Source: a virus (lineage: Duplodnaviria; Heunggongvirae; Uroviricota; Caudoviricetes). Taken from it: 40,921 nucleotides of DNA. Every line of letters starts with the position of its first letter. Positions within the stretch are counted from its first letter, which is position 1. Shown piece after piece: positions 6,018 to 29,005 of this stretch. A model generated the notes under the pieces. It ran no database searches. It saw only the letters and a list, made by a program, of their open reading frames with translations, and was not told the DNA's origin. The position numbers and the translations under genes were made by a program. The stretch covers positions 1 through 40,921 of IMG/VR virus record IMGVR_UViG_2740892440_000004. One strand, written 5' to 3'.

Positions 6018-8351
6018 TTATTTGATTGTTGGCTCATCGCACTTGGGTAGCCAGTCTGCATTACTTTCCTCTTTTAAAGTGAGGTTAGTCTGCATTCCCT
6101 GATTAGTTCGCCGTTTCTCATAATGTAGCCCGTACTCCTTCAGCATGACTGGCAACCCTTTGCCAAACATCGTAAGACTCAGGGTGTTTTTATATCCATT
6201 AGCCTCCATGTATACGAGGTAGGCATGGTAAAGGTAGGTACGTGGCTGGCGTGGGACAATATTGGCGTTCCCCATAAACATGCCGTTGGTGTCAGGTAAT
6301 GCCTCAAGATAGCCACAAAAATCAAATGCTGGATCAGCATCACGCTTGATGGTGAGAGCCTCATCAGAATTCTGCTGCGACTGAAGCAATGTTCTGGCGC
6401 TCATCGGATCGCTGAAACGCTGCATGAGCTGGCGAACAATCACAGCCAGTTCTCGTGCAATTTTATCTTTCAGCTGCGGATCGCGTTCTTCCGGTGCTAT
6501 CTGCTCAGGAAAATGCAGAATAACTCTCCTGCGGGACACACCACCACTGCGATCAGTGAAGCGCATAGGATTATTATTTACGGCCAGGATAACCGCCGGA
6601 ATATGTGTTGAATAAGCATTCTGATATTTGGGGTCCACCGATACCGCATCGCCACCAGTTATAGCCTTAAGCCCGGCGCCGTCGCCGCTCCACTTCTCCT
6701 GATCAGGCAGGCGAATAAGAGAAAAACCTATCAGAGCCGCACGTTCTCGCGGGGACTCCAGCGTTTCAATGGTCGCAGAGGTGGCGTTATCCTCTCCAGC
6801 AAGCATGGTCGCAATTTCAGCCAGAATACTTTTGCCACTTCCACCAGGGCCAGTCACTTCCAGAAAGAGCTGCCAGTCATAGCGATTCGCCAGCACCATA
6901 AATAACGCCGCAAGAATAATGTCGCGTTTTTCTGGCTTGTGTCCGGCAGCCCGGTCCAGCCAGCGCCAGAATGCCGGGGCATGAGTTTCAAGCGTTTCCC
7001 CCTCTACCGGTGGCGTGAAATCGACTTCACACAGGGTACGCAGCCAGTTCTCTTTACAGTGCGGACTAAACAGCCCTGTTCGCGTATCGAGGACGCCATT
7101 ACGAAAACCGATCAGATGACGTGCCGGATTTTGCTGCTGCGGAACAATTAACTTTAATGTTTCCACCAGTGAAGCAATTTTTCCTGAGGAAAACGGTGCA
7201 CCGAGGCGCTGGAAAAGGGCTGCGACATCTCGGGCAAAATCTGACTGAGAAATCACTTTCCACGCTCCAGACTCGTAGCGGGATAAAAGCTGCCCGTTCG
7301 GATCAACCGCCAGTGCATCCCTGTAATGCTCCCGAACCCTCTGAGCTTTTTCGCTGACACTCATCGCTGTGAATTCTGCTTCACTCATTGTGTCGAAAGG
7401 ACTGGCGTTATGTGGCTTCAAAGCCTCAAGAATTGCCTTCCGGGTGGATTCCTCTCCGTATTGGGTAAGCGCATCATTCCAGTCACCAAAAACCGGTGGC
7501 AGCACAATGTCACACTGACACGCTTTTGCAGCAGTTTCAGCCCTGTTCTGGCCTGAACCATTCAGATCGCGGTCCGCTGCAATAATTAACTGATATCCCG
7601 GATACTTGTTATGGGCAACGCTGGCCAGAGAAAGAAAGTTGACCGACGAAAATGCCACCATGACGGCTTCTCCTGTCAGATGACGAATGGTAAGCGCCGT
7701 GGCGTAACCTTCCGCAATCCACATCCTTCTTACAGAACTCCCGCCCCCTTCTATCAGATGATAGGCCTCCTTAACCTGACCTCCTTTAAGAAAACACTTG
7801 CTACCATTGCCACTGATAAGCTGAATATTCACCAGTTCCCCGTCAGCGTTATAGAGCGGGACGATCAAATCACCGGGGTGGAACATCACCCCACCGGTTT
7901 TATGACCTGAAGTCAGCTCATGGCAAATATGCTCCGGGAAACCTTTATGTGTAAGATAAGTATTTCCGGCAGATTCACGCGAGACTTGCAGTAGTCGCGC
8001 GGCAAGTGCTGCTGCCGCCTGTTTCCCGCCATCTGTATCTGCGGTTGACGTCCAGACTCCAGAAGAGGCTGAAGACAGACTATGTGTCAGTCCATGTATC
8101 CTGTCTGCTGCTTCACTGATATCCACATTCAGTACCTTGCTGACAAGCGCTAAACCGTCCCCAGCCCCGCACTGGTTGCAGAACCATGTTCCACGTCCTT
8201 CCAGATCGTCGAAGCGAAAACGATCTTTACCGGCGCAGACCGGACAAGGCTGATGGCGATTTTTCAGTATGTTCATACCCAGCGCTGGCAAAATCCGCGC
8301 CCAGTGACCGCGGGCAGCCTTCACGGCCTGACTGACTTTCATTCCTGACAT
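6018..8351 (-). CDS. P4 alpha-type primase/helicase (replication protein)
   Basis: Zn-finger primase motif CPVCAGKDRFRFDDLEGRGTWFCNQCGAGDG, Walker A GPGGSGKS; approx. 777 aa; start set at the ATG preceded by GAGGGAG rather than the upstream alternative start in the ORF track. Confidence 0.9.
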   Translation of the reverse strand: MSGMKVSQAVKAARGHWARILPALGMNILKNRHQPCPVCAGKDRFRFDDLEGRGTWFCNQCGAGDGLALVSKVLNVDISEAADRIHGLTHSLSSASSGVWTSTADTDGGKQAAAALAARLLQVSRESAGNTYLTHKGFPEHICHELTSGHKTGGVMFHPGDLIVPLYNADGELVNIQLISGNGSKCFLKGGQVKEAYHLIEGGGSSVRRMWIAEGYATALTIRHLTGEAVMVAFSSVNFLSLASVAHNKYPGYQLIIAADRDLNGSGQNRAETAAKACQCDIVLPPVFGDWNDALTQYGEESTRKAILEALKPHNASPFDTMSEAEFTAMSVSEKAQRVREHYRDALAVDPNGQLLSRYESGAWKVISQSDFARDVAALFQRLGAPFSSGKIASLVETLKLIVPQQQNPARHLIGFRNGVLDTRTGLFSPHCKENWLRTLCEVDFTPPVEGETLETHAPAFWRWLDRAAGHKPEKRDIILAALFMVLANRYDWQLFLEVTGPGGSGKSILAEIATMLAGEDNATSATIETLESPRERAALIGFSLIRLPDQEKWSGDGAGLKAITGGDAVSVDPKYQNAYSTHIPAVILAVNNNPMRFTDRSGGVSRRRVILHFPEQIAPEERDPQLKDKIARELAVIVRQLMQRFSDPMSARTLLQSQQNSDEALTIKRDADPAFDFCGYLEALPDTNGMFMGNANIVPRQPRTYLYHAYLVYMEANGYKNTLSLTMFGKGLPVMLKEYGLHYEKRRTNQGMQTNLTLKEESNADWLPKCDEPTIK

Positions 8352-8365
8352 GATGCAGTTCTCCC

Positions 8366-8689
8366 TCAGTGTAAAACCGGCTTTATAATGTGACGGACGC
8401 ATAACTCATCCATTACGGCTATTCCGAGCTGGGAGAGTGCGGGGCAGGACATTAGAGGACCGGATTCCATCAGGTCTGAAAGCAGGGCGCAGGCGATTTC
8501 CATGCCTTTTGTTTGCCCGTGCTGTCGCAGATAAAAACCTTCAAGCTCACGGGCAATGGCGGTTTCAATTTCATCCAGAGTGAGCTGCAGGTGGCGGTTG
8601 TGCTGATGGCAGATACTCAGCCAGGCGCAGGCAACCGCGCGGCGATATAACGCCAGCCGAAGTGAGAGGGGAAGAGTGCGTGATTTCAT
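8366..8689 (-). CDS. hypothetical protein (107 aa) of the satellite early operon
   Basis: ORF whose start overlaps the upstream stop (ATGA) and whose end overlaps the alpha start. Confidence 0.5.
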
Positions 8690-10702: not shown

Positions 10703-11386
10703 GTGGAAAACGTTAAGGCAGCAAAAGCTGTCTGGCAGGAAGAACGGCGAAAACAAACTGAAGCTGCTGCAATGATTGAAACTATCCGTAAACGTCAGGA
10801 AGATACAAAAACGGAAACGCAGGCGCTTAATGATGAATGGCGAAACCTGTTTCGTGAGAATCAGGGAAATATGACACCACGCATGAAAAAACTGCGGGCA
10901 GAAATCGCCCTCGGACGCGAAACACTGGATGAGTTCGAAGATTTGCTGGCAGCTCAGGTGGCAGAAAATGAATTCCTGCCCTGGAAAACTGCGGATGCTG
11001 CAAACCACTACATCAGCGAACATAATCGCCTGATTGAAACTCATGCAGTGTGGCTCTGGAATGAGTTTATGAAGGAACACGGCCAGAAACTTATTCAGAT
11101 CCTTGGACTGTTGAAAATGACTCTGGGCCGAAGCGCTTCTGCTGTTATCGGTGTAGTTCATACCGTAAACGACCCCGAAAGTGTGCTGAAGCAATTTATC
11201 AGCGAGCAACTCACCACTCCGGCACTGTCCTGTAACGTATCTTCAACGGATGATATTACCCTGCCGGGGATCAGCATTTATGCGGACGATAAAGCCATCC
11301 AGGATGCCAGACAATCCCCCAGCCCTGCAGCGCGTTCACGGATGCTTAAACAGCGTGACATGGTTAAAGGGGGCGAGAAGAAATGA
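10703..11386 (+). CDS. putative Sid-like capsid size-determination (external scaffold) protein; probably starts at ATG 10635 with a frameshift near 10705
   Basis: first gene of a +strand operon followed by psu and delta; coiled-coil-like Glu/Arg/Ala-rich sequence; ATG 10635 has a GGAG RBS and reads into this frame if one base is restored. Confidence 0.45.
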   Translation: MENVKAAKAVWQEERRKQTEAAAMIETIRKRQEDTKTETQALNDEWRNLFRENQGNMTPRMKKLRAEIALGRETLDEFEDLLAAQVAENEFLPWKTADAANHYISEHNRLIETHAVWLWNEFMKEHGQKLIQILGLLKMTLGRSASAVIGVVHTVNDPESVLKQFISEQLTTPALSCNVSSTDDITLPGISIYADDKAIQDARQSPSPAARSRMLKQRDMVKGGEKK

Positions 11387-11937
11387 ATGCCGGAACCATT
11401 ACTCAGGAAGCTCTCAACGATTACCGCTCGGCGATAAAAAGCTGGCTGACACTACGTAATACGCAAAGTACCTACCAGCTTCGTCTGGCGGCTCTGCTGA
11501 ATACTGAAGAAAAACCGGCAGCATATGCCAGCCAGCTTGAGGAGCTTCGTGAGCGTCTTGCTGTCCTCGAATGGCAGATTAACTGTGCTGCACGGGATGG
11601 TCTTTATGCTCACCAGATTGTGCTGGAGAGTTGTGTTACAAGCGCAACGGAAAACTTCATGAGCGAGCATGGTGATGCACTCACTGACGCACTGGCTCCT
11701 TTTCTTTGCGCTCCATACGGGCTTGAGGCGGCAATGAAAATATTACGAACCGCTGTAGCCCGACAAACGGAAGTGCGTACTCCGGTAATTTCAGCAGCAT
11801 ACAAGAGCATTATCGACGAAACCGGATTAACGGTGGATGCATCAATGTACGCTGATGCTTCAACCAGTTTCACCCCGGCACAACATAAAGTTTTCCTGGC
11901 CCGCCTTAACCGACTTAATGAAAAAGGAGGGTACTGA
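11383..11937 (+). CDS. psu: Psu-like polarity suppression (capsid decoration) protein
   Basis: 184 aa; ATGA overlap with upstream gene; segments ...MSEHGDALTDALAPF... and ...FTPAQHKVF... resemble P4 Psu as recalled. Confidence 0.7.
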   Translation: MNAGTITQEALNDYRSAIKSWLTLRNTQSTYQLRLAALLNTEEKPAAYASQLEELRERLAVLEWQINCAARDGLYAHQIVLESCVTSATENFMSEHGDALTDALAPFLCAPYGLEAAMKILRTAVARQTEVRTPVISAAYKSIIDETGLTVDASMYADASTSFTPAQHKVFLARLNRLNEKGGY

Positions 11938-12636: not shown

Positions 12637-13578
12637 ATGGATGCACTGCATGTCGCGCTTGAAAATCTGATTAGAGATGATGGTCAAACACTAAATAGTT
12701 ATTTTAGTGAAGTTAAAGTTAATTCATTGATTGAAAATACAAATGCAACTTGTCATTTTCATTGCCTTAATCTTGATGGCAATGGACGTCCTCGGGTAGA
12801 CGCGTTAATCCAATTCTTGAACGATAAAGTAGTTGATTATGCTATTCCAAGGAAAAAAATCAATGAGGCAGTGCAATATTTTAATGAAACACAATCAACA
12901 GCGAAAATAACAAAATTAGCAAATCAAGCAAAAAAATTATTTACTAGGCTTGCAAATAGTGGCGAAGGCGGTGAATTTATTCTTTTTTTATTTGCAGAGC
13001 AATTCCTTAGATTTCCACAAATTATTTGCAAAATGAGCCTGAAAACGAGTTCTCAAATGCATTACCATGGTGCAGATGGAATACATATAGGCGTAGATAA
13101 AGATAATAAAAAATTATGTTTATACTGGGGCGAGTCTAAACTCTATTCCAATCTGAGCAAAGGTATTTCTGAGTGTATGGATAGTATAGCTCCATTACTT
13201 CAAAGTTCTATGGGAATAGAAGGCGCTGAGACACGTGATATGCAGTTGCTGGAGTCGCACTTAAATGTTGATGATATAGAACTAGAACAAGCGTTGAAAA
13301 GATTCTTAGATCCTGATAGCCCGGATTTTAATAAATTGGAATACAGAGGAATATGCTTAGTTGGGTTTGATCTTAAAGATTATCCACAAGGGCCCAGTTC
13401 AATTGATATCAGTGAACTAGTTGCTTTGATTAATACTAAAGTCGGGAAATGGTCAACTAGTGTGCAAGGTGGTATAGTTAATAAAAAACTTGATCGCTTT
13501 GCTATGCATGTTTTTATTCTTCCTTTTCCTTCAGTAAAAGCATTTAGGGCTAGTTTAATTAAAGCATTGGAGAGTTGA
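12637..13578 (+). CDS. cargo protein 1 (313 aa) with a PD-(D/E)xK-like nuclease motif; candidate defence effector
   Basis: low-GC ORF; segment HGADGIHIGVDKDNKKLCLYWGESK has D...D...ExK spacing typical of PD-(D/E)xK nucleases. Confidence 0.6.
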   Translation: MDALHVALENLIRDDGQTLNSYFSEVKVNSLIENTNATCHFHCLNLDGNGRPRVDALIQFLNDKVVDYAIPRKKINEAVQYFNETQSTAKITKLANQAKKLFTRLANSGEGGEFILFLFAEQFLRFPQIICKMSLKTSSQMHYHGADGIHIGVDKDNKKLCLYWGESKLYSNLSKGISECMDSIAPLLQSSMGIEGAETRDMQLLESHLNVDDIELEQALKRFLDPDSPDFNKLEYRGICLVGFDLKDYPQGPSSIDISELVALINTKVGKWSTSVQGGIVNKKLDRFAMHVFILPFPSVKAFRASLIKALES

Positions 13579-13579
13579 A

Positions 13580-15514
13580 ATGTCGTTGCGAGATTTATCT
13601 GGGTGGTTGATTAAGAATCAAGGATTCTTAAGAAAATATCAGGCATTAGTCGCTAACTCGATAAAAGATCAATTTCCAGAGTTAAAATCAGATGTAATCC
13701 CACAGATTAGTTCTGAGGATGTCGGCTATCTTTTAACATGTGCTAGTTCTTTGGCTTTCTCAAGTGATGAGAAATGCCAAGATGCAGCCTTAAGGATTGC
13801 ACAGTATTGCTTATTGAATGAAAAAAGTGAAGCAAGAAAAGATAGTGCTGCATTAATTCTTGATTCATTATCTAATAATCCAGCAATACAACTTGCTGAA
13901 AATAGGGGGTATCTTAACCCTGATTTCGAAGAAAGATTACCCTTAAAGGCTCAGTTAGAACTAACTAAAAGAAAAATTCTATATACAATTGAAATAGATG
14001 CTGATAAGCATATTTATGCTAATAGGTTTCAATCAGAGTTTTGGGATGCGGTACAAGAAAACTCATGGGTTAGTGTCTCTGCTCCTACCTCTGTAGGAAA
14101 ATCATTTATCCTGGAATCTTGGGTGGAGCAGTTTGTAAAAAGAAATAAGAATTGCTTAGTTATTTATATCGTACCAACAAGGGCATTGATTTCAGAAGTA
14201 TATTCTGAGTTGCAAAAACGTTTGGATCCTAATTTAACAAATATAGTTAATATTCAGACACTACCATTGAGTAATGTATACCAGAGCGAAAAATCTAATG
14301 TCTTCATATTTACACAGGAAAGATTAAATTTATTCTACAATCATTTCTCACAAATTCCAAAGATAGACGTCTTAGTTGTTGATGAAGCACACAAGATCGG
14401 TGATGGTGGAAGAGGTGTTATTCTTCAACATGTAATTGAACTGACTTGTCTAAATAACCCTGATTCAAAAGTTATCTTTGCAAGTCCTTTCACCTTAAAT
14501 CCTGAAATATTGCTCAGTGATGCTCCAATATTAAAAAACAAAAGAACTATAAAAAGTGACTATGTTACAGTTAATCAAAATTTAATATGGGTAGAACAAA
14601 AACCACGCAAGACCAAAGATTGGTTGATGTATTATTTTGCAAACGGTGAAAAACGCGAGTTAGGAAACTTTTCTTTAGAAAATGCACCATCTCCTGAAAG
14701 TAAAAGATTGCCTTTTGTAGCTCTTTGTTTAGGTAAGGGGGCTTCTGGTAACGTAGTTTACGTAAATGGAGCCGCTGAAGCAGAATCTACTTCCAAGCTA
14801 ATATCTGCAAGTATAGAAAATGAGACTGAGGATGAAGAAATTTTAGCTCTCGTTGAGCTTAGTGAGACAATTATACATAAAAATTTCGCATTAAATCGCA
14901 CTCTAAAAAAGAGAGTCGCTTTTCATTATGGCAACATGCCTTTAATAATAAAGGGCGAGATTGAACGATTGTTTAGTAAAGGTAAGATTGATTTTTTAAT
15001 TTGTACCTCAACTTTAGTTGAGGGCGTAAACATGGCTTGTAAAAATATTTTTATAAGAGGCCCTAAAAAGGGTAATTCAACCCCGATGCGAGAAGAGGAT
15101 TTTTGGAATCTTGCTGGCAGAGCTGGTCGTTGGGGAAAAGAATTCCAAGGTAATGTCATCTGCATCGATAGCGACAATGAAAAAATTTGGAATGGAGAGC
15201 CTCCAAAAACCAAAAAAAATATATTTATAACTCGCGCCACGGATGCTATTTCCCATGACATGGATAAGTTGGTTTCCTATATTTTTTCAGAGCATCATTT
15301 TGGTATGTCTGAGCGGAATCCTAATCTCCAGAGTCTATTTAGTTATTTATGTTCATCATTTTATTTTTATAATGGCTTGGATAATAATCCTTACATGGAA
15401 AAGTACAATATAAAAAATATCGATGTTTTAAATGAAGCAATATTTGATGTTTTTGATTCTTTAACTTTTCCACACGAATTGGTTGTGCGGCATCCTGGTA
15501 TAAGCCGCTTTTAA
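13580..15514 (+). CDS. cargo protein 2: superfamily-2 DEAH-box helicase (644 aa)
   Basis: motif I APTSVGKS, motif II VVDEAHKI, motif V TSTLVEGVN, motif VI NLAGRAGRWG; starts 2 bp after gene 1. Confidence 0.8.
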   Translation: MSLRDLSGWLIKNQGFLRKYQALVANSIKDQFPELKSDVIPQISSEDVGYLLTCASSLAFSSDEKCQDAALRIAQYCLLNEKSEARKDSAALILDSLSNNPAIQLAENRGYLNPDFEERLPLKAQLELTKRKILYTIEIDADKHIYANRFQSEFWDAVQENSWVSVSAPTSVGKSFILESWVEQFVKRNKNCLVIYIVPTRALISEVYSELQKRLDPNLTNIVNIQTLPLSNVYQSEKSNVFIFTQERLNLFYNHFSQIPKIDVLVVDEAHKIGDGGRGVILQHVIELTCLNNPDSKVIFASPFTLNPEILLSDAPILKNKRTIKSDYVTVNQNLIWVEQKPRKTKDWLMYYFANGEKRELGNFSLENAPSPESKRLPFVALCLGKGASGNVVYVNGAAEAESTSKLISASIENETEDEEILALVELSETIIHKNFALNRTLKKRVAFHYGNMPLIIKGEIERLFSKGKIDFLICTSTLVEGVNMACKNIFIRGPKKGNSTPMREEDFWNLAGRAGRWGKEFQGNVICIDSDNEKIWNGEPPKTKKNIFITRATDAISHDMDKLVSYIFSEHHFGMSERNPNLQSLFSYLCSSFYFYNGLDNNPYMEKYNIKNIDVLNEAIFDVFDSLTFPHELVVRHPGISRF

Positions 15515-16161
15515 TGCAAAACCTTTGGGATAGATTTTCGCGGGATACAAACAAACCTGTAGAGAGATTACTGCTTTCTGAACCTGGTAGTAATGATGCG
15601 TTAGATTCATATGTATCCGCATTCTCTAGAATTAGTGATACTCTGAGTAAGAAGCTAGGTTATAATTCAAAAGGAGCTTACGTACAGGCCTTGTTAGTTT
15701 CCAAGTGGATGAAAGGTTATCCCCTAGCAAGATTGATCTCGGATAGAATAAGATATAACAAAAAGAAAAATATTGTTTTCAAAGAAGCGACTTTAATACG
15801 AGGGGTTATGAAGGATGTTGAAGAGATCGCTCGCTATCAAGCTCCAAGGCTTTTAGGATGTTATAATGATTTATTAAAAAGCTTTTATCTTTCGATAGAT
15901 CGCACAGACTTAGCAAAAGATGTTGAAGATATCGGTGTTTATTTAGAACTGGGTGTAAGTTTAAAAACTCAGATTTCACTAATAGGGCTTGGCTTTTCAA
16001 GAACTGCTGCTGTAATGATTTCAGAGCTTATTCCTAATGATAGTTTAGATGAGGAAGAATGCATTAATTGGATTAAGGACAATAAAGTTGACATGGAAGA
16101 ACTGCCACAATTAGTTCAAAACGAAATACATAATATATTTCGTAACTTTTGGGTACAATAG
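15514..16161 (+). CDS. cargo protein 3 (215 aa), unknown function; coupled to the helicase by TAATG overlap
   Basis: low-GC ORF immediately following the helicase in a different frame. Confidence 0.6.
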   Translation: MQNLWDRFSRDTNKPVERLLLSEPGSNDALDSYVSAFSRISDTLSKKLGYNSKGAYVQALLVSKWMKGYPLARLISDRIRYNKKKNIVFKEATLIRGVMKDVEEIARYQAPRLLGCYNDLLKSFYLSIDRTDLAKDVEDIGVYLELGVSLKTQISLIGLGFSRTAAVMISELIPNDSLDEEECINWIKDNKVDMEELPQLVQNEIHNIFRNFWVQ

Positions 16162-16253: not shown

Positions 16254-16711
16254 TCAGGCTATTCCAGAATAGGCTTTGCTTACTTCACTATGCCTTGTGC
16301 CGCAATGCCTCAAAATAACAAGGCCATGTTGCAGTAACGCCTCACTACGTTCAGGTTCAAACCATTTCCCGTTAAATTTTCCTCCGTGAAAAAGATTGTT
16401 TCTTACACGGCGGATTAACAAAAAAAGAAATTTTGCTAAATCTTTTTCTTGTGGTAAAGAATCATCCAAACTAAAGAGTCATCTTCTATGATTTGTTTTT
16501 TGGGTGGGTGTTCTTTAAAGTAGGTGATAGCAGCAATTAGCTCTGGATCAGTTGTGTTATTTATGATTTCAGAAACTTGCTTTGCATACTCATCCCAGTT
16601 CGCTTTAGCATCTTTTATTTTATGATGAAGTCCACATGCCTTAAGGCAATATTCATAACGTGAAAACTCTCTAAAGAATTCATAACATAAATTATCTAGA
16701 TTATTCTCCAT
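16254..16711 (-). pseudogene. HEPN-like small protein (Rx4H motif), split into two ORFs by an apparent 1-bp G-run contraction
   Basis: ORFs 16436-16711 and 16254-16469 overlap; restoring one G in tttgg-atg fuses them into approx. 160 aa; C-terminal part contains IRRVRNNLFHGG, i.e. R-x4-H as in HEPN RNase motifs. Confidence 0.45.
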
Positions 16712-16740: not shown

Positions 16741-17940
16741 CTAATATTGATTGCGCTCGTACACTTTTTGGCCCCACCAATTCATAAGTCCTATTCGTTG
16801 CTCAAGGTAAGTTGAACGATTATATGCTCTGCGCACTTCATTTTTATCACTATGTGCAAGAGCAGCCTCAATTACATCTGCATTAAAACCCGCTTCATTT
16901 AATGCGGTGCTGGCAATTGAACGCAATCCATGAGCAACCAATCTACCACCAAATCCAATCCTTTTTAAAGCAGCATTTGCCGTCTGGCTATTCATTGGTT
17001 GCTTTGGGTCATTCCGACTCGGGAAAACATGTTCACGATGGGCACTGATTAGCTTCATCACATCAAGAATCTCTAATGCCTGAGGAGATAGAGGGACTAT
17101 GTGTTCCCGCTTAGCCTTCATTCGTTCAGCTGGGATAGTCCAGAGCTTTGCATCGAGATCGAGCTCAGCCCACCTAGCACCGGAAGCCTCAGAAGGACGA
17201 ACTAGAGTCAGGAGTTGCCACTCAATGAGGCAGCGAGTCGGAACAGACAAATTTGACATGACGAGAGAACGCATCAGCATAGGCAATTCTTCTGGGCGCA
17301 ACGTAGGCATATTTTGTTTTTTTGGCTTCTCAAAGGCCATTCCAATGCCTGATGCTGGATTGGCATCAATAAGACCAGTATTTACGGCATAAATCATTAT
17401 CTCGTTAACACGCTGCACCAACCGGCGCACCGTCTCCAGCGCCCCACGAGCTTTGATCGGTTCAAGGGCTTCAACCAGTGTTCGGGCTTTGATTTGCTGG
17501 ACAGGGATCTCCCCGATGGTGGGGAATACGTCTTTTTCCAGTGAACGCCATATATCTTTAGCGTAATCATGGGTAACGCTTTTGCTTTTGAGCTGGAACC
17601 AGTTAGCGGCGACCGTCGAAAAAATACTGTCCAGAGCGATTTGCTGCTGTTCCTCTGCAACTTCAGCTTGAATTTGCGGGTCGATTCCGTTGGCTAATAG
17701 GGCAAGGTAATCTGCTCTTAACCCTCGGGCATCAGCAAGAGAAAGGGCAGGAAAAGCACCAAGTCCCATCATAGTCCGCTGTTTTGTTGCTGGGCGTTGA
17801 TAGCGAAAGCGCCAGAGTTTCTTGCCGCTAGTTTTCACTATCAGGAAAAGCCCATCGCCATCATGCAGCGTTAGATCCTTCTCTAACGCTTTCGCGCGCA
17901 GAACTTCGGTGTTGGTCAGGGGGCGTGTTGTCCGTGCCAC
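16741..17940 (-). CDS. int: P4-type tyrosine integrase
   Basis: 399 aa; catalytic segments AHGLRSIASTAL (HxxR) and RAYNRSTY (Tyr); positioned next to the tmRNA-derived att fragment. Confidence 0.9.
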   Translation of the reverse strand: MARTTRPLTNTEVLRAKALEKDLTLHDGDGLFLIVKTSGKKLWRFRYQRPATKQRTMMGLGAFPALSLADARGLRADYLALLANGIDPQIQAEVAEEQQQIALDSIFSTVAANWFQLKSKSVTHDYAKDIWRSLEKDVFPTIGEIPVQQIKARTLVEALEPIKARGALETVRRLVQRVNEIMIYAVNTGLIDANPASGIGMAFEKPKKQNMPTLRPEELPMLMRSLVMSNLSVPTRCLIEWQLLTLVRPSEASGARWAELDLDAKLWTIPAERMKAKREHIVPLSPQALEILDVMKLISAHREHVFPSRNDPKQPMNSQTANAALKRIGFGGRLVAHGLRSIASTALNEAGFNADVIEAALAHSDKNEVRRAYNRSTYLEQRIGLMNWWGQKVYERNQY

Positions 17941-18050: not shown

Positions 18051-18088
18051 AAACACAAAAAAGCCCGCAGCTTGTGCCATGCGGGCTT
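18051..18088 (-). terminator. rho-independent terminator between the att fragment and the satellite integrase
   Basis: 9-bp stem aagcccgca / tgcgggctt with 10-nt loop, followed on the minus strand by TTTTGTGTTT. Confidence 0.4.
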
Positions 18089-18122: not shown

Positions 18123-18167
18123 TGGTGGAGCTGGCGGGAGTTGAACCCGCGTCCGAAATTCCTACAT
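18123..18167 (-). other. 45-nt copy of the tmRNA (ssrA) 3' end: attachment-site junction between the P4-like element and the 186-like prophage, not a complete tmRNA gene
   Basis: reverse complement reads ATGTAGGAATTTCGGACGCGGGTTCAACTCCCGCCAGCTCCACCA, the T-arm/acceptor/CCA end of enterobacterial tmRNA; match stops after 45 nt and upstream sequence is unrelated AT-rich DNA. Confidence 0.8.
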
Positions 18168-18252: not shown

Positions 18253-19314
18253 TTAATCCTCTGCCGCCAAAGTGCCGCCATCATCAACTGTCACCGGTTT
18301 CTCCATTACGTATGCTGACCATTCAGGAGAATAGAATGGTTGCAAAAATTTAGAAAATTGTTCTGTATCAAATTTAATTTCACCAATGTACAAGTAGTTA
18401 TATATATTACTGTAGTTTTGAAGCTGAAATCCGTAAGCTAGTTTTAATATCTTTTTAGATAGATAAAATGCAGCCTCAAGTGATTCGGCTAACATTGATT
18501 CTGTAGGGGTGAACGTTCTTATTTTAGTGCCGTTGATTTTTAACTCTATATAGGCTATCGAGATACAATCTACGCATAAAGTATCTAATAATTTAGCTAT
18601 GTTATATGAAATTGTATTTAATCTGGTAAGGTAATCTTCTGCATTTGAATGGGGTGTAACCTTATCTTTTGATAAGTTATTATTAATGGTATCTAGGATT
18701 GACAATATGCTTTTTTTAAAGTTCTCGTCTGGTGAATAATTGGATGTGATATCCATTGACGATTCTGTATATATATTGGAATATAATAAGTATGGGTTTG
18801 AGATTTTAATTTCATGAGTTGTTAGTATTTTAATTTTGTTGCTATCATTGTAATTATAATATTTTGATGCGTCATCTACAAAGCTTTGCATCGTAAAGCT
18901 TGATATTTCTTTAATTTTATCTACGAAATTTTTCTCATGAGCAAAATGTCTATCGATTGCATTTTTGATTTCAGATGAATTAATTTGTGCTTCGGTTTGT
19001 ATCGTTCTGTGAATGTTATTTACTATGGAAGCTAATGGTACAGAACTTGCGAGTATCAATAATGGGAATTTGCTTATCTCATAGAATCTGGCATATCCGT
19101 GAGCAGAAAGAACAGGTATTTTACCAAACCATGCAAATGCTCCAAAATAAATGAATGACAGCAGTGGTACTGCAATTGAAATCCAAAATAATTTCTGTTG
19201 AAATAAATTTCTTTTATCGAGAATGTACCACTTTTTATATATTGATACAAACGCAAAAAGAATAATTGCCAAAATATACACAATAATTCCAGTAAAGCTA
19301 GTATTAATGTTCAT
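18253..19314 (-). CDS. low-GC membrane protein (353 aa, three N-terminal TM helices plus approx. 250-aa soluble domain); moron co-transcribed with the phage integrase
   Basis: start ATG overlaps the integrase stop (ATGA); hydrophobic segments FTGIIVYILAIILFAFVSIY, LFWISIAVPLLSFIYFGAFAWF, FPLLILASSVPLASIV; AT-rich relative to neighbours. Confidence 0.7.
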   Translation of the reverse strand: MNINTSFTGIIVYILAIILFAFVSIYKKWYILDKRNLFQQKLFWISIAVPLLSFIYFGAFAWFGKIPVLSAHGYARFYEISKFPLLILASSVPLASIVNNIHRTIQTEAQINSSEIKNAIDRHFAHEKNFVDKIKEISSFTMQSFVDDASKYYNYNDSNKIKILTTHEIKISNPYLLYSNIYTESSMDITSNYSPDENFKKSILSILDTINNNLSKDKVTPHSNAEDYLTRLNTISYNIAKLLDTLCVDCISIAYIELKINGTKIRTFTPTESMLAESLEAAFYLSKKILKLAYGFQLQNYSNIYNYLYIGEIKFDTEQFSKFLQPFYSPEWSAYVMEKPVTVDDGGTLAAED

Positions 19315-20332
19315 ATAATATTTAAATTAAATAGTGGGTTTTTAGTTACTGCATCTTCAAGATGCTCTGGTGAAAAATGGGCATAAACCATAGTCATCTT
19401 AATATCTGAATGCCCTAAAATATCCCTCAAAACGAGTATGTTTCCGCCATTCATCATGAAGTGACTGGCGAATGTGTGGCGCAGTACATGGGTGCATTGG
19501 CCTTCTGGCAGCTCAATACCCGCGCGTTTAACCGCCCGCTCAAAGGCTTTTCTACATGGAGTGAATAGCTTCCCTCTGTTTTTGGGGAGTTCATCATACA
19601 GATCCTGAGATATCGGCACAGTACGGTTTTTCTTGCCTTTTGTTTTTGTATAAGTAATTCGGTATTTCGATATTTGATGGCCCTGCAGATTTTCGGCTTC
19701 ACTCCACCGTGCGCCAGTAGCTAGGCATATTTTTGCAATCATTAGTAAGCTAGGGCTTTGAGATTCAGCACATGCCGCCAACAGGCGCTTGATTTCGTCC
19801 GTGGAAAGAAAAGCCAGCTCACCTTCGGCAATTTTGAAGGTCGGAAGTCCTGCCAGCGGGTTTGGTGCTGACCAGTGTCCTAGTTTTTTTAATGTACCGA
19901 ACACAGATGATAGATTGCGCTGTTCAAGGTTTACCGTGCGGGGCTTAACGGGCGACATAAGCGTGCCATCTTCATTTCGTATTTCACCTTTTAACCGTGC
20001 TTCGCGGTATTTTGTAAAGTCACCAGCTGTCAGTTCTGAGGCGATGGGATCGCCTAGACCATTACAGATAATTCTAAGTTTCGCCATGAGGCGCTTGGGG
20101 TCTGCGAGTGTTTGACCATATAGGGAATACCAAAGCTCAATTAATTCTGATAGCGTCGCCGATCATCCTTTTCACCCAACCACGGTTTTTTATTCACTTC
20201 TTCCATTGTGAAGCTTTCAAACGCAATGGCTTCGCCTTTCGTGGCAAATTGCTTACGCACGCGCTTGCCATTGCGTCCATTGGGATAGCACTCACACAAC
20301 CATTTTCCGTTCGGCTGTTTTCTGATGGTCAT
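19311..20332 (-). pseudogene. int: P2/186-type tyrosine integrase, frameshifted near 20130-20140
   Basis: N-terminal ORF (20141-20332) MTIRKQPNGKWLCECYPNGRNGKRVRKQF... and C-terminal ORF (19311-20087) with HVLRHTFASHFMMNGGNILVLRDILGHSDIKMTMVYAHF; combined length approx. 337 aa. Confidence 0.8.
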
Positions 20333-20333
20333 A

Positions 20334-20966
20334 TCAAAGGCTCTTAATGATTTTCAGTGCGCGGCCTACTACCTCAATGTCATCCAGACCGCACTCAAAC
20401 GATGAATCATCCTGATGCACTACTAATTTGTTTCCCGGGAGTCGAGTCAATTTAACGATGCTTTTTATCCCGTCGATATCGACTAACCACATACCATTTA
20501 CTGGTGGTGTTTGGTTGCGATCTATTAAATAAGAATCACCAGAAGTAGTCACCAGCAGTAGGTTGCTTGAGTCTGAGGGGAGTATGCTGCTATCAATGAT
20601 TGCTTTTCCAGCATCGACCAATAAACCACCGTTGAGAGTCGCCTTGTCAATTTCAGGAGATACTAGTTCAGAAAGAGGTACAACCTTGCTGGAGTTCACG
20701 GAATTGATATTTTTTTTAGGTTCAATGTTTGGACCTGGCTCTCCCTGTCCGGTGGTTAGCCACAGTAAAGAAACTCCTGTTTCCAAGGCGCACTGAATCA
20801 CCCACTCTGCAGGAAAACTATCTCTTAAGTATCTGTTTGCCATGGTGCTTTTTGATGCGCCTAAGTGATCGCAAAGTTGCTGTCTGGACTTGAAATCATA
20901 GGCTGCCATTAGTCTATGGATAGCCTCTCTTCCCCCTGTATTCTCTCCAACCTTTACCTGTATCAT
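20334..20966 (-). CDS. CI-type immunity repressor with N-terminal HTH and LexA-like (S24) C-terminal domain
   Basis: 210 aa; HTH LCDHLGASKSTMANRYL; C-terminal LLLVTTSGDSYLIDRN...GIKSIVKLTRLPGNKLVV aligns with the LexA Ser/Lys region (VSGMSM ... TVKRL..GNKV); divergent from the lytic operon. Confidence 0.75.
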   Translation of the reverse strand: MIQVKVGENTGGREAIHRLMAAYDFKSRQQLCDHLGASKSTMANRYLRDSFPAEWVIQCALETGVSLLWLTTGQGEPGPNIEPKKNINSVNSSKVVPLSELVSPEIDKATLNGGLLVDAGKAIIDSSILPSDSSNLLLVTTSGDSYLIDRNQTPPVNGMWLVDIDGIKSIVKLTRLPGNKLVVHQDDSSFECGLDDIEVVGRALKIIKSL

Positions 20967-20978
20967 TTTTTAATCCTG

Positions 20979-21030
20979 TTGACGTATCAAATATTGGATC
21001 GTAGTATCTCGATGTATCAAATATTGAATC
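20979..21030 (+). promoter_or_regulatory. putative rightward early promoter (TTGACG-17-TAGTAT) overlapping two 20-bp direct-repeat operators
   Basis: -35 TTGACG 20979-20984, 17-nt spacer, -10 TAGTAT 21002-21007; repeats gacgtatcaaatattggatc (20981-21000) and gatgtatcaaatattgaatc (21011-21030). Confidence 0.45.
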
Positions 21031-26328: not shown

Positions 26329-26517
26329 ATGCAGGACTATTTTTTGGAGTCTTTGAAGCTCCAGCGCATTGATTTTTTTCTTAAGCTTGTAGCGGCTAGT
26401 GAGTGTAGTGATGAAGAGAAGGGGCTGGCTCTGCAGTGGGTTTCTGAATTGACTGATGAACTCATGGCAAAAATCAGAACCCACGAATACAACCGCTCAA
26501 TGGATGTCATCAGCTGA
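26329..26517 (+). CDS. hypothetical small protein (62 aa) in SOS-controlled operon
   Basis: GGAGG RBS then ATG 26329. Confidence 0.45.
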   Translation: MQDYFLESLKLQRIDFFLKLVAASECSDEEKGLALQWVSELTDELMAKIRTHEYNRSMDVIS

Positions 26518-26527
26518 GGTGACTTTT

Positions 26528-26761
26528 ATGCGCATTGAAATAATGATCGATAAAGAGCAGAAGATTAGCCAGTCTACCCTGGACGCCCTTGAATCCGAGC
26601 TTTACCGCAATCTGCGCCCCCTGTATCCCAAAACGGTAATTCGCATTCGCAAAGGTAGCTCTAACGGTGTGGAACTAACCGGACTGCAACTGGACGAAGA
26701 AAGAAAACAAGTGATGAAAATTATGCAGAAGGTGTGGGAAGACGACAGCTGGCTGCATTAA
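26528..26761 (+). CDS. DinI-like protein (Tum/antirepressor C-terminal-domain-like)
   Basis: 77 aa MRIEIMIDKEQ...LYRNLRPLYPK...VWEDDSWLH resembles the DinI family (MRIEV...E.W....W). Confidence 0.7.
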   Translation: MRIEIMIDKEQKISQSTLDALESELYRNLRPLYPKTVIRIRKGSSNGVELTGLQLDEERKQVMKIMQKVWEDDSWLH

Positions 26762-27131: not shown

Positions 27132-27827
27132 ATGAAATTGATTGAACAGACGCATCAGATTAATTTTTTCACAAATAATAATGATATAGTTCCAAATACA
27201 CTAACTATTGGATCTATGCTTGATAAGATTGGAAAATTTGGATTTGTACCTACTTTTGGTCAGGAGATTAATGCCATCACTGGTGAGAAAAAGCAAATTC
27301 TTATCATGGTAGATACCAATCAAACAGTAAGAGTCGAGTTTCCTAGCCATGGAATCATTTTTAATGGTTTGGGGGGGGAACCTCAAGCGTTTTCAGAAAT
27401 GGTTCTATCTATATCTAGGGAACTACAAAACGTATTTCCGATGAAAAAAGGAAATAGGATAGCTGTTCTGAATTCACGTATCTATCAAGGGGATGAATCT
27501 GTTTACTCTTCGCTTTACAATGCTTTGTTTACCTATAAAGGTGTTAATCCATTTGAGTGGGACAATCGTATAGCTGTAAGGAAAAATATTGAAGAGTATC
27601 AGGAAGAAATTAATAGTATTAGTACAATTAGACGCGCTGAAATTTCAGCTCCATTTTTGAATAATGGTATGCCAAGTGATTGCGTATTATTTGAAACTGA
27701 TACTAATACTCTTCCTCAAAATGGATATATGCGGTTTGGTTGGGATGAATATATCCGCGTGCTAGAGTTATTGTGTCAGGACAATCTTAAAACTATTGAT
27801 AATTTACAACGCTACACTTCTCTGTAA
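27132..27827 (+). CDS. cargo protein X1 (231 aa), unknown function
   Basis: low-GC ORF, first of three tightly spaced genes between the cos-like site and the portal gene; no recognisable motif. Confidence 0.75.
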   Translation: MKLIEQTHQINFFTNNNDIVPNTLTIGSMLDKIGKFGFVPTFGQEINAITGEKKQILIMVDTNQTVRVEFPSHGIIFNGLGGEPQAFSEMVLSISRELQNVFPMKKGNRIAVLNSRIYQGDESVYSSLYNALFTYKGVNPFEWDNRIAVRKNIEEYQEEINSISTIRRAEISAPFLNNGMPSDCVLFETDTNTLPQNGYMRFGWDEYIRVLELLCQDNLKTIDNLQRYTSL

Positions 27828-27836
27828 GGTGATGCT

Positions 27837-28484
27837 ATGGTAAAGAATAGTTTTATAATAAGTGATGAAAAGCCTTTTGGCTTACCTAAGTTTAAAAATG
27901 GGGTAAGTTCAATAGGTGCATTTTCTGATTATTATGATGGTAACAATATCATTTACGCTGATATTAAAAGAAATGAGCTGTCACATAGCAAAACAAATGG
28001 TGGCTTTCAATTAGAGACTGAGTCAATAAATCAAGGTTCGTCAACTAAGCAGAACTTTGAAATTCAGGTTTCAAAATGTACCTCTAGACTAATTGAGTTA
28101 ACATGTTCAGAAGATTACATTGAAGGCGAGATAAGCAAGACACAGATTTACATGGAGTTCTTGTATGATAAAAATCAGGATTTATTCCAAGAGTCCTTTC
28201 AAAGGACATGGGTACAATTGTACAGAATGAATGATCAACATGTAAAGAACTTCATTAATTTTGCATCGACTATTGAATATGAATGGTTAGGTAATAAAGC
28301 TGACGCTATGATTATGGGAGTTTGTTCTCTTGAGAATGAACTTATATTTGAGGCAGCGATCCGTGCAGTTGAGTCTTGGGGGGAAAAATCATTTATTCCA
28401 GTCCTTGAAAGAATGAGGAAATTTGATGCTGATTGGGTGGAAGAATATAAAGAAGCAGTTATAGGATATTTGAGAAGTCTATAA
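27837..28484 (+). CDS. cargo protein X2 (215 aa), unknown function
   Basis: AGGTGA RBS; 9 bp after X1; no recognisable motif. Confidence 0.75.
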   Translation: MVKNSFIISDEKPFGLPKFKNGVSSIGAFSDYYDGNNIIYADIKRNELSHSKTNGGFQLETESINQGSSTKQNFEIQVSKCTSRLIELTCSEDYIEGEISKTQIYMEFLYDKNQDLFQESFQRTWVQLYRMNDQHVKNFINFASTIEYEWLGNKADAMIMGVCSLENELIFEAAIRAVESWGEKSFIPVLERMRKFDADWVEEYKEAVIGYLRSL

Positions 28485-29005
28485 TGACATATTTATTGCG
28501 TAAAATATCCCATAGTAAATGGGAATGTAATAAAGGTAGAGCACCTGACAATATATCCGCAGACGCGATAACAGGTTGCACAAGGACCTCTAATAACACC
28601 TTGTCAGTTTGGGTTTCTGACTCTATCGATTTTCAAGATGAATCGGTAGAGAAAATTATTGTTGCCCTTGCCACCACGATGTCAGAGCCAGCTACGATAG
28701 ATTTGGTTTGGCTTGATTCACAATGGTTTGAAGATAAAGGTATTGATATTTCTCGTACTGAAGGAAATACTTTGTATAAATCAGTTAACCATTTGCATCG
28801 AGATCTGTCAGAATTAAATCATAGAAAGCTTGCTGAGGTTGGTGAACATATACTTGAGCAATTAAAATCTAAGGATTATTATAAAAGAATCCTCAAGAGT
28901 GAACTTATAGCCTTAGTTTTTAAATGGCAGCAGCGAGATGGTGATTTTGATATTGATGATTTGGGACAGAAGTGGTCTAAGTCATTAAATAAACTGATTA
29001 ACTGA
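28484..29005 (+). CDS. cargo protein X3 (173 aa), unknown function
   Basis: start overlaps X2 stop (TAATG); no recognisable motif. Confidence 0.75.
   Translation: MTYLLRKISHSKWECNKGRAPDNISADAITGCTRTSNNTLSVWVSDSIDFQDESVEKIIVALATTMSEPATIDLVWLDSQWFEDKGIDISRTEGNTLYKSVNHLHRDLSELNHRKLAEVGEHILEQLKSKDYYKRILKSELIALVFKWQQRDGDFDIDDLGQKWSKSLNKLIN

Follow-up and report, generated by a model that had tools for sequence, protein, structure and literature searches.

What does a temperate phage carry in the short interval between its integrase gene and its attachment site? The question is raised by orf353, an open reading frame (ORF) of 353 codons in a stretch of viral DNA of 40,921 nucleotides (nt) from the IMG/VR record IMGVR_UViG_2740892440_000004 (hereafter 'the window'), in which a 186-like prophage lies at the ssrA gene. 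On balance we favor the reading that orf353, a predicted membrane protein, is made in the lysogen from the transcript of the repressor and integrase genes (cI and int) and defends against other phages. Part of its support is that relatives of orf353 turn up repeatedly in prophage hotspots of several kinds where validated defence genes are found. The gene and the parts of its product, with transmembrane (TM) helices assigned and with the AlphaFold2 (AF2) model as one line of evidence, are as follows:

18253 to 19314, minus strand: orf353, ATG start, 353 amino acids (aa), from the ORF list, homologues, AF2 and the ratio of nonsynonymous to synonymous substitution rates (dN/dS)
19012 to 19314, minus strand: codons 1–101, three TM helices (residues about 10–26, 42–63 and 84–101), from hydropathy, DSSP on the model and conservation
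18904 to 19011, minus strand: codons 102–137, long juxtamembrane helix, from invariant columns, helical angles and the AF2 helix 82–137
18256 to 18903, minus strand: codons 138–353, α/β C-terminal domain (C-domain), from the AF2 model and the family alignment; predicted cytoplasmic
19311 to 19314, minus strand: ATGA overlap of the int stop and the orf353 start, within AAT ATT ATA TGA ACA TT

orf353 is a real gene and has been under purifying selection over short times. At 31% GC, about 7.8% of random codons are stops, and the probability of 353 open codons computed from composition is ~3e-13. This value, together with hundreds of homologous clusters and an overall dN/dS of 0.33 against 97%-identical relatives (from small counts), argues against a chance ORF. 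In one close comparison dN/dS of the C-domain is 0.25, a value based on only 14 substitutions. The gene is also much more AT-rich than its neighbors, as a first-pass annotation made from the sequence had noticed: its GC content is 30.9% (27.7% at third codon positions), as against 45.4% in int, 44.2% in cI and 51.3% in the rest of the prophage. Similarly low values are found in other cargo of the window, namely a Hachiman defence system (35%) and three genes between gpA and the portal gene (35%).

The surroundings of orf353 are those of a presumed lysogenic operon of the phage 186 type:

19311 to 20332, minus strand: int, a 186/P2-type tyrosine integrase (Pfam Phage_integrase and Int_N), split by a 1-nt deletion near 20153
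20334 to 20966, minus strand: cI, the CI repressor (Pfam Phage_CI_repr and Phage_CI_C), first gene of a presumed lysogenic operon cI-int-orf353, a layout assigned by analogy with 186
20962 to 21007, both strands: face-to-face promoter-like sites, candidate pL (minus) and pR (plus), from a consensus scan only, arranged as in 186
18123 to 18167, minus strand: core of the attachment site (att), a copy of the 3′ end of ssrA (the tmRNA gene) and the prophage boundary, from a partial match to Rfam tmRNA
18056 to 18088, minus strand: hairpin AAGCCCGCA...TGCGGGCTT followed by TTTTT, read from the letters, likely the ssrA terminator

The letters at 19311–19314 confirm that the orf353 ATG sits on the int stop codon, and the gene does lie between int and the att junction. 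The prophage is likewise 186-like and located at ssrA as the first-pass annotation had it, with cI, int, apl- and cII-like neighbors, the last two on the strand opposite to cI and int, and a tmRNA-derived core. Its switch region is of the 186-like Peduoviridae type, and its replication, head and tail genes run to 40921. Over its first 2.1 kb the window matches Escherichia coli chromosomes (ypjC region) at 100% identity, which makes E. coli the host. The att core is matched in all 5426 E. coli genomes; the partial tmRNA match terminates at 18123 (E=2e-15), and the window holds no complete tmRNA gene.

The three genes follow each other on the same strand with spacings of 1 nt between cI and int and −4 nt between int and orf353, and the scan found no terminator-like site on the minus strand between cI and orf353. 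Only ~85 nt of AT-rich sequence separate orf353 from the att core. Read-through transcription probably ends at the hairpin beyond it, which the terminator scan overlooked owing to its 10-nt loop. In phage 186 a small gene, Orf69, lies between int and attP; the reference record of 186 has pL driving a 'lysogenic operon' via int and Orf69, with a predicted terminator beyond attP, and leftward transcription in 186 has been reported by an int::lacZ fusion (PMC7708051). By analogy with 186, orf353 is most likely made in the lysogen from pL, as the last gene of the cI-int operon.

The occupancy of the same place in related prophages bears directly on what kind of gene orf353 is. About 1,300 complete E. 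coli genomes have a prophage matching the switch region, and the contents of the int-att slot were taken from the 60 best matches; the sister prophages compared are 87–97% identical at the nucleotide level in the int/cI region. The contents differ even among prophages in which int and cI are at least 90% identical. Among these 60, four genomes have a homologue of 353 aa, 54% identical to orf353, in the slot. Elsewhere it is occupied by GapS1, an anti-phage dCTP deaminase, HNH endonucleases or a 418-aa hypothetical protein, or it is empty. In the Cartapus phage a RES-domain protein follows int immediately, whereas in SEN8 and MLG42 int is not directly followed by any gene. orf353 is absent from 186, SEN8, MLG42, Cartapus and most E. 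coli sister prophages. Homology to a conserved core phage gene, which the first-pass annotation had set against its own proposal, was looked for in Pfam, PHROGs and NCBIfam, and none was found. orf353 is accessory cargo, not a core gene.

The slot is therefore variable in 186-like prophages at ssrA, and the earlier view of it as a typical place for lysogenic accessory functions is supported by the validated defence genes that relatives hold there. The anti-phage status of GapS1 and the dCTP deaminase rests on their annotation as validated systems. The slot itself is already described: in a survey that covered thousands of P2-like prophages, the int-att interval counts among the minor defence hotspots and accounts for 3% of the defence systems of P2 (Moura de Sousa et al., NAR 2026, PMC13586616). 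The protein family of orf353, meanwhile, is uncharacterised and without a recognisable fold. orf353 shares with the other occupants (GapS1, dCTP deaminase, HNH, the Cartapus RES protein and 186 Orf69) the position, the near-identical int and cI, and the variable occupancy and, with most of them, the orientation of int and closeness to its stop. It differs in having no sequence relationship to any of them and in being a membrane protein without a PADLOC, Pfam or NCBIfam match. In the prophage of E. coli CV839-06 (L035, 251–1984), the dCTP deaminase gene that occupies the slot runs on the other strand than int, some 380 nt from it, and therefore not all slot cargo can rely on read-through from the lysogenic operon.

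How widespread is the family? A first search returned 81 homologous clusters, all from Enterobacterales, all 'hypothetical' and none with a Pfam domain. A profile search of 1.84 billion representatives extended this to 885 clusters at E<=1e-3 (454 at E<=1e-10), clusters being defined at 50% identity and members being mostly 320–400 aa long. All family names retrieved, from Klebsiella, Proteus and Providencia, read 'hypothetical protein'. The only library match of orf353 is phrog_17460 (PHROGs v4; E=1.3e-46, 160.7 bits), in which residues 11–308 align with profile positions 8–306 of 343. orf353 is a member of this PHROG by sequence, and the PHROG has no assigned function; the membership adds only that the family has already been seen in phage and prophage genomes.

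Other searches gave nothing to which a function could be attached. Pfam-A, NCBIfam 20 and PADLOC-DB 2.0 returned no family for orf353, Pfam returned nothing consistent on 41 aligned members and nothing usable on 10 remote ones, and no enzyme or transporter signature was found in about 50 members scanned. The best hit of a sequence profile search of the PDB (E=0.18) was rejected. Foldseek searches of the model against BFVD and the PDB gave only E>1; a likeness to ExbB/TolQ, at E 6–7, was not significant. Neither accessions nor the PHROG identifier were found in the papers searched or in the DefensePredictor supplements, and a literature search on transmembrane anti-phage genes downstream of an integrase found nothing relevant.

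The family is tied to int in most places but not in all. Members lie directly downstream of a 186-like prophage int in 14 of the 18 contexts inspected. Where gene calls were available, the 4-nt overlap with int is present in 6 of 10 contexts, the remaining four genes starting at +4, +5, +38 and +131 nt; the relatives with an identical overlap are P0001, P0073, P0033, P0044 and P0059. In a P2-like prophage of Providencia, a 30%-identical member occupies the gpA-portal (tin/old) hotspot, the classical place of P2 defence cargo (Rousset et al. 2022, PMC9122126). orf353 itself is in the minor int-att hotspot, not in tin/old, and has no sequence relation to Tin or Old (no PADLOC match). A Proteus member, with PRTase-CE and DUF4747 genes as neighbors, is found in a lambdoid prophage at its tail-fibre end, and a Pseudomonas chlororaphis member adjoins a P2-like gpD tail gene and umuDC. 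In Pectobacterium aroidearum (L040, 5001–6092), a 51%-identical member sits between rplY and an NA37/yejM-like region, beside an Acyl_transf_3 gene; this copy has been either stranded as an islet or domesticated. A scan of genome contigs yielded 5 loci only, too few for statistics.

The gene also moves separately from its neighbor. Cargo homologues are only 35–54% identical where the integrases are 90–95% identical, while against the metagenomic relative L006 synonymous divergence (dS) is 0.047 in orf353 and 0.17 in int; the cargo has thus been exchanged independently of int. In Klebsiella (L009–L013, 7184–8377), a 397-aa gene lacking any Pfam or PADLOC match comes after the family member P0073 and ahead of the att site, and some branches of the family may work as two-gene systems.

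The predicted structure of orf353 agrees with the three N-terminal TM helices and large soluble domain that had been read from the sequence. Kyte–Doolittle hydropathy peaks at residues 1–29, 41–64 and 80–101, with none beyond residue 110. The AF2 model, built on a 41-sequence alignment (mean predicted local distance difference test score (pLDDT) 84.9, predicted template modelling score (pTM) 0.70), has helices at 3–26, 41–62 and 82–137, followed by a mixed α/β domain to about residue 345.

Conservation divides the protein in another way. Mean pairwise identity in the family is 64% over residues 29–130, as against 21% over residues 1–28 and 23% over the C-domain (138–345). The conserved stretch comprises loop 1 and both TM2 and TM3, with an amphipathic periplasmic turn between the two, and reaches 30 residues into the long helix. 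The invariant residues include P84, L85, N100, H102, R103, T104, Q106, Q110, K117, D121, H126 and K128. On an ideal helix, a 100-degree arc of one face takes in H102, R103, Q106, Q110, K117, D121 and K128, which form a conserved polar stripe about 4 nm long that is continuous with the weakly hydrophobic TM3. When separate hidden Markov models were used for each half, 57 of 249 family proteins matched the profile of the N-terminal module alone. Most of these carry 100–260 further residues that the C-domain profile does not recognise.

Loop 1 carries about 5 lysines or arginines (K/R), and variants with an extra N-terminal TM helix (four in all) start with MKKK, MKNK or MKIK. From loop 1 and the MKKK- or MKNK-led variants, the positive-inside rule would give three-helix forms an N-out/C-in topology and four-helix forms N-in/C-in, placing the C-domain in the cytoplasm in both.

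In the model that we infer, expression from pL, an anti-phage function, a cytoplasmic C-domain and a division into effector and sensor would come together in one protein. The specific mechanism is proposed tentatively. TM2, TM3 and the polar-striped juxtamembrane helix would constitute a membrane effector that probably oligomerises via the stripe and perturbs or permeabilises the inner membrane. The diverging C-domain would hold this effector inactive until a component of an infecting phage is recognised, and would thereby set phage specificity.

Two known systems resemble this arrangement. RexAB of phage lambda is an abortive-infection pair co-transcribed with cI, and RexB is a polytopic membrane channel. 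The pair is encoded downstream of the immunity repressor and made in the lysogen, as orf353 presumably is, and the principle proposed for orf353, a cytoplasmic sensor coupled to a membrane effector, would be the same; orf353 differs in being one polypeptide instead of two and in having int between cI and the cargo. Homology to RexB or RexA was rejected (hhalign probabilities 0.13% and 0.23%). CapRel-type fused systems reportedly join a conserved N-terminal toxic domain to a hypervariable C-terminal domain that senses phage. They are prophage-borne and encoded by a single gene, and the constant N-terminal module (64% in the orf353 family) and hypervariable C-domain (23%) follow the same plan, but the module of orf353 is a membrane module rather than a tRNA pyrophosphokinase, there is no homology, and its sensor would be one by analogy.

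It is possible, though less probable than the defence role itself, that orf353 founds an undescribed, widespread family of single-gene defence systems: a new effector of three TM helices and a polar helix, with a hypervariable cytoplasmic sensor of no known fold, carried by several temperate lineages in lysogen-expressed hotspots. The breadth of the family is at least 885 clusters at the 50% identity level, from Enterobacterales and at least one Pseudomonas.

The rest of the window holds further elements. The 186-like prophage shares the ssrA site with a P4-like satellite, the two being arranged in tandem, and each has cargo of its own:

6018 to 8402: P4-like satellite primase
10703 to 11386 and 11383 to 11937: two Psu-family ORFs of the satellite
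12637 to 13578 and 13580 to 16161: HamA and HamB of a Hachiman system in the psu-int hotspot of the satellite, HamB being split at 15514
16741 to 17940: P4-type integrase of the satellite
26456 to 26761, plus strand: DinI-like gene in the gpA-portal hotspot of the prophage
27132 to 29005, plus strand: three co-oriented ORFs (231, 215 and 173 aa; 34.6% GC) in the gpA-portal hotspot

The gpA-portal trio has no Pfam or PADLOC match; at the same place sister prophages have an S8 peptidase with an AAA ATPase, or TIR-domain genes. The trio is a candidate for a second unannotated defence cassette. Between Hachiman and the P4-type integrase (16254–16711, minus strand) are two overlapping short ORFs of 91 and 71 aa, which have no Pfam or convincing PADLOC match and may be one gene split by a frameshift. 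The 71-aa ORF contains an R-x4-H motif (RNNLFH) reminiscent of HEPN. Klebsiella genomes (L014, L016, L011 and L039) have P4-type integrase islands just beyond the att site of 186-like prophages, with Ser/Thr kinases and PP2C, an LmuB-like gene, retron Ec48 and a Hachiman-like helicase with HamA-Cap4 as cargo. In several genera, defence cargo is stacked at the ssrA locus.

Several genes of the window are interrupted. int is present as two ORFs, 20332 to 20141 (63 aa) and 20087 to 19311 (258 aa), and it is the stop of the 258-aa C-terminal frame that the orf353 ATG overlaps. The cause is a 1-nt deletion near 20153 relative to both L006 and the 98.9%-identical E. coli sister prophage L035. Relative to L035, three more genes have each lost a single nucleotide: gpA at about 25362, the portal gene at about 29439 and the lysozyme gene at about 35617. 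HamB is also split, at 15514. In all four genes, int included, the missing base is a G or C from a run of 2–3 nt, and because the four deletions share this form they are probably errors of sequencing or assembly rather than signs of prophage decay. The frameshifted genes should thus not be taken as pseudogenes on this sequence alone. The idea of a decaying prophage in which orf353 was retained by the host was rejected for the same reason, the pattern being a sequencing-error signature when set against so close a sister.

A number of points weigh against an anti-phage orf353 expressed with int. Location in a hotspot is only guilt by association, as hotspots also carry non-defence morons, and the islet that holds the Pectobacterium member is chromosomal, the nearest 5 kb being free of prophage genes. 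No Shine–Dalgarno sequence is visible upstream of the ATG, and the int frameshift, if real, would weaken translational coupling to orf353. Loop 2 also carries 3 K/R, while the topology comes from the positive-inside rule only. Finally, the divergence of the C-domain could reflect weak constraint instead of adaptation to phages, though dN/dS there is 0.25.

These points leave room for four other explanations, ranked here by likelihood: exclusion at entry, conversion unrelated to defence, a role within the prophage and a silent gene. Superinfection exclusion at the inner membrane overlaps our reading in being anti-phage. DNA entry or an early membrane step would be blocked without killing the cell, and the variable domain would contact ejection or tape-measure proteins; P22 SieA, T4 Imm and HK97 gp15 are precedents. 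A predicted inner-membrane protein, presumably expressed in the lysogen, would suit this role, and the hotspot and the diversification would be the same. We nonetheless regard it as unlikely, since the positive-inside rule and the MKKK-led four-helix variants predict that the variable domain is cytoplasmic and thus at a distance from the phage as it enters, since orf353 has no Pfam match to SieB or Imm, and since known Sie proteins are much smaller. It is less likely still that orf353 is a conversion gene outside phage defence, acting on the envelope, on stress or as a virulence-related factor. The position between int and att is classical for such genes in P22- and SfV-like phages (O-antigen modification, serum resistance), orf353 is predicted to be a membrane protein, and the Pectobacterium homologue adjoins an Acyl_transf_3 gene. 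However, orf353 has no glycosyl- or acyltransferase Pfam domain and three TM helices, as against 8–11 in the polytopic Gtr and Oac enzymes, and the extreme diversification of a single domain, together with the presence of defence genes alongside the family in prophage hotspots of three kinds, fits an arms race better.

A function for the prophage itself, as a modulator of integration, excision or lysis timing, an anti-P4 factor or an addiction toxin, would explain the tight linkage and frequent 4-nt overlap with int, and a P4-like satellite does adjoin the prophage immediately. Yet the slot is empty or otherwise filled in close, viable phages, and int therefore does not need orf353; the family also occurs away from int in Providencia, Proteus and Pectobacterium, and the window has no gene for a partner antitoxin. 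We consider this function improbable. The same holds even more strongly for a non-functional leftover or silenced gene, intact by chance or newly acquired, which we regard as very improbable. The 31% GC, with H-NS silencing of AT-rich DNA in mind, the broken int and the missing Shine–Dalgarno sequence are in its favor, but the chance-ORF probability of ~3e-13, the dN/dS of 0.33 and the hundreds of full-length homologues are not, and the frameshifts (1-nt deletions in short G/C runs) resemble sequencing errors. Defence against other phages by a protein made in the lysogen is thus the reading that we retain.

Defence hotspots hold many comparable candidates, among which orf353 is a clean one that is cheap to test. 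If it is a defence or exclusion factor, it would add a new family without a known fold to the catalogue of prophage-borne immunity, provide a one-gene model of a membrane effector coupled to a fast-evolving sensor, and give direct functional support to the int-att slot, which has so far been backed mainly by recognisable systems. If it has no anti-phage activity, the conserved residues 29–130 would still be an unstudied membrane module spread by temperate phages. Genes of this kind shape the phage susceptibility of E. coli, Klebsiella, Citrobacter and Enterobacter, and are relevant to phage therapy and phage typing.

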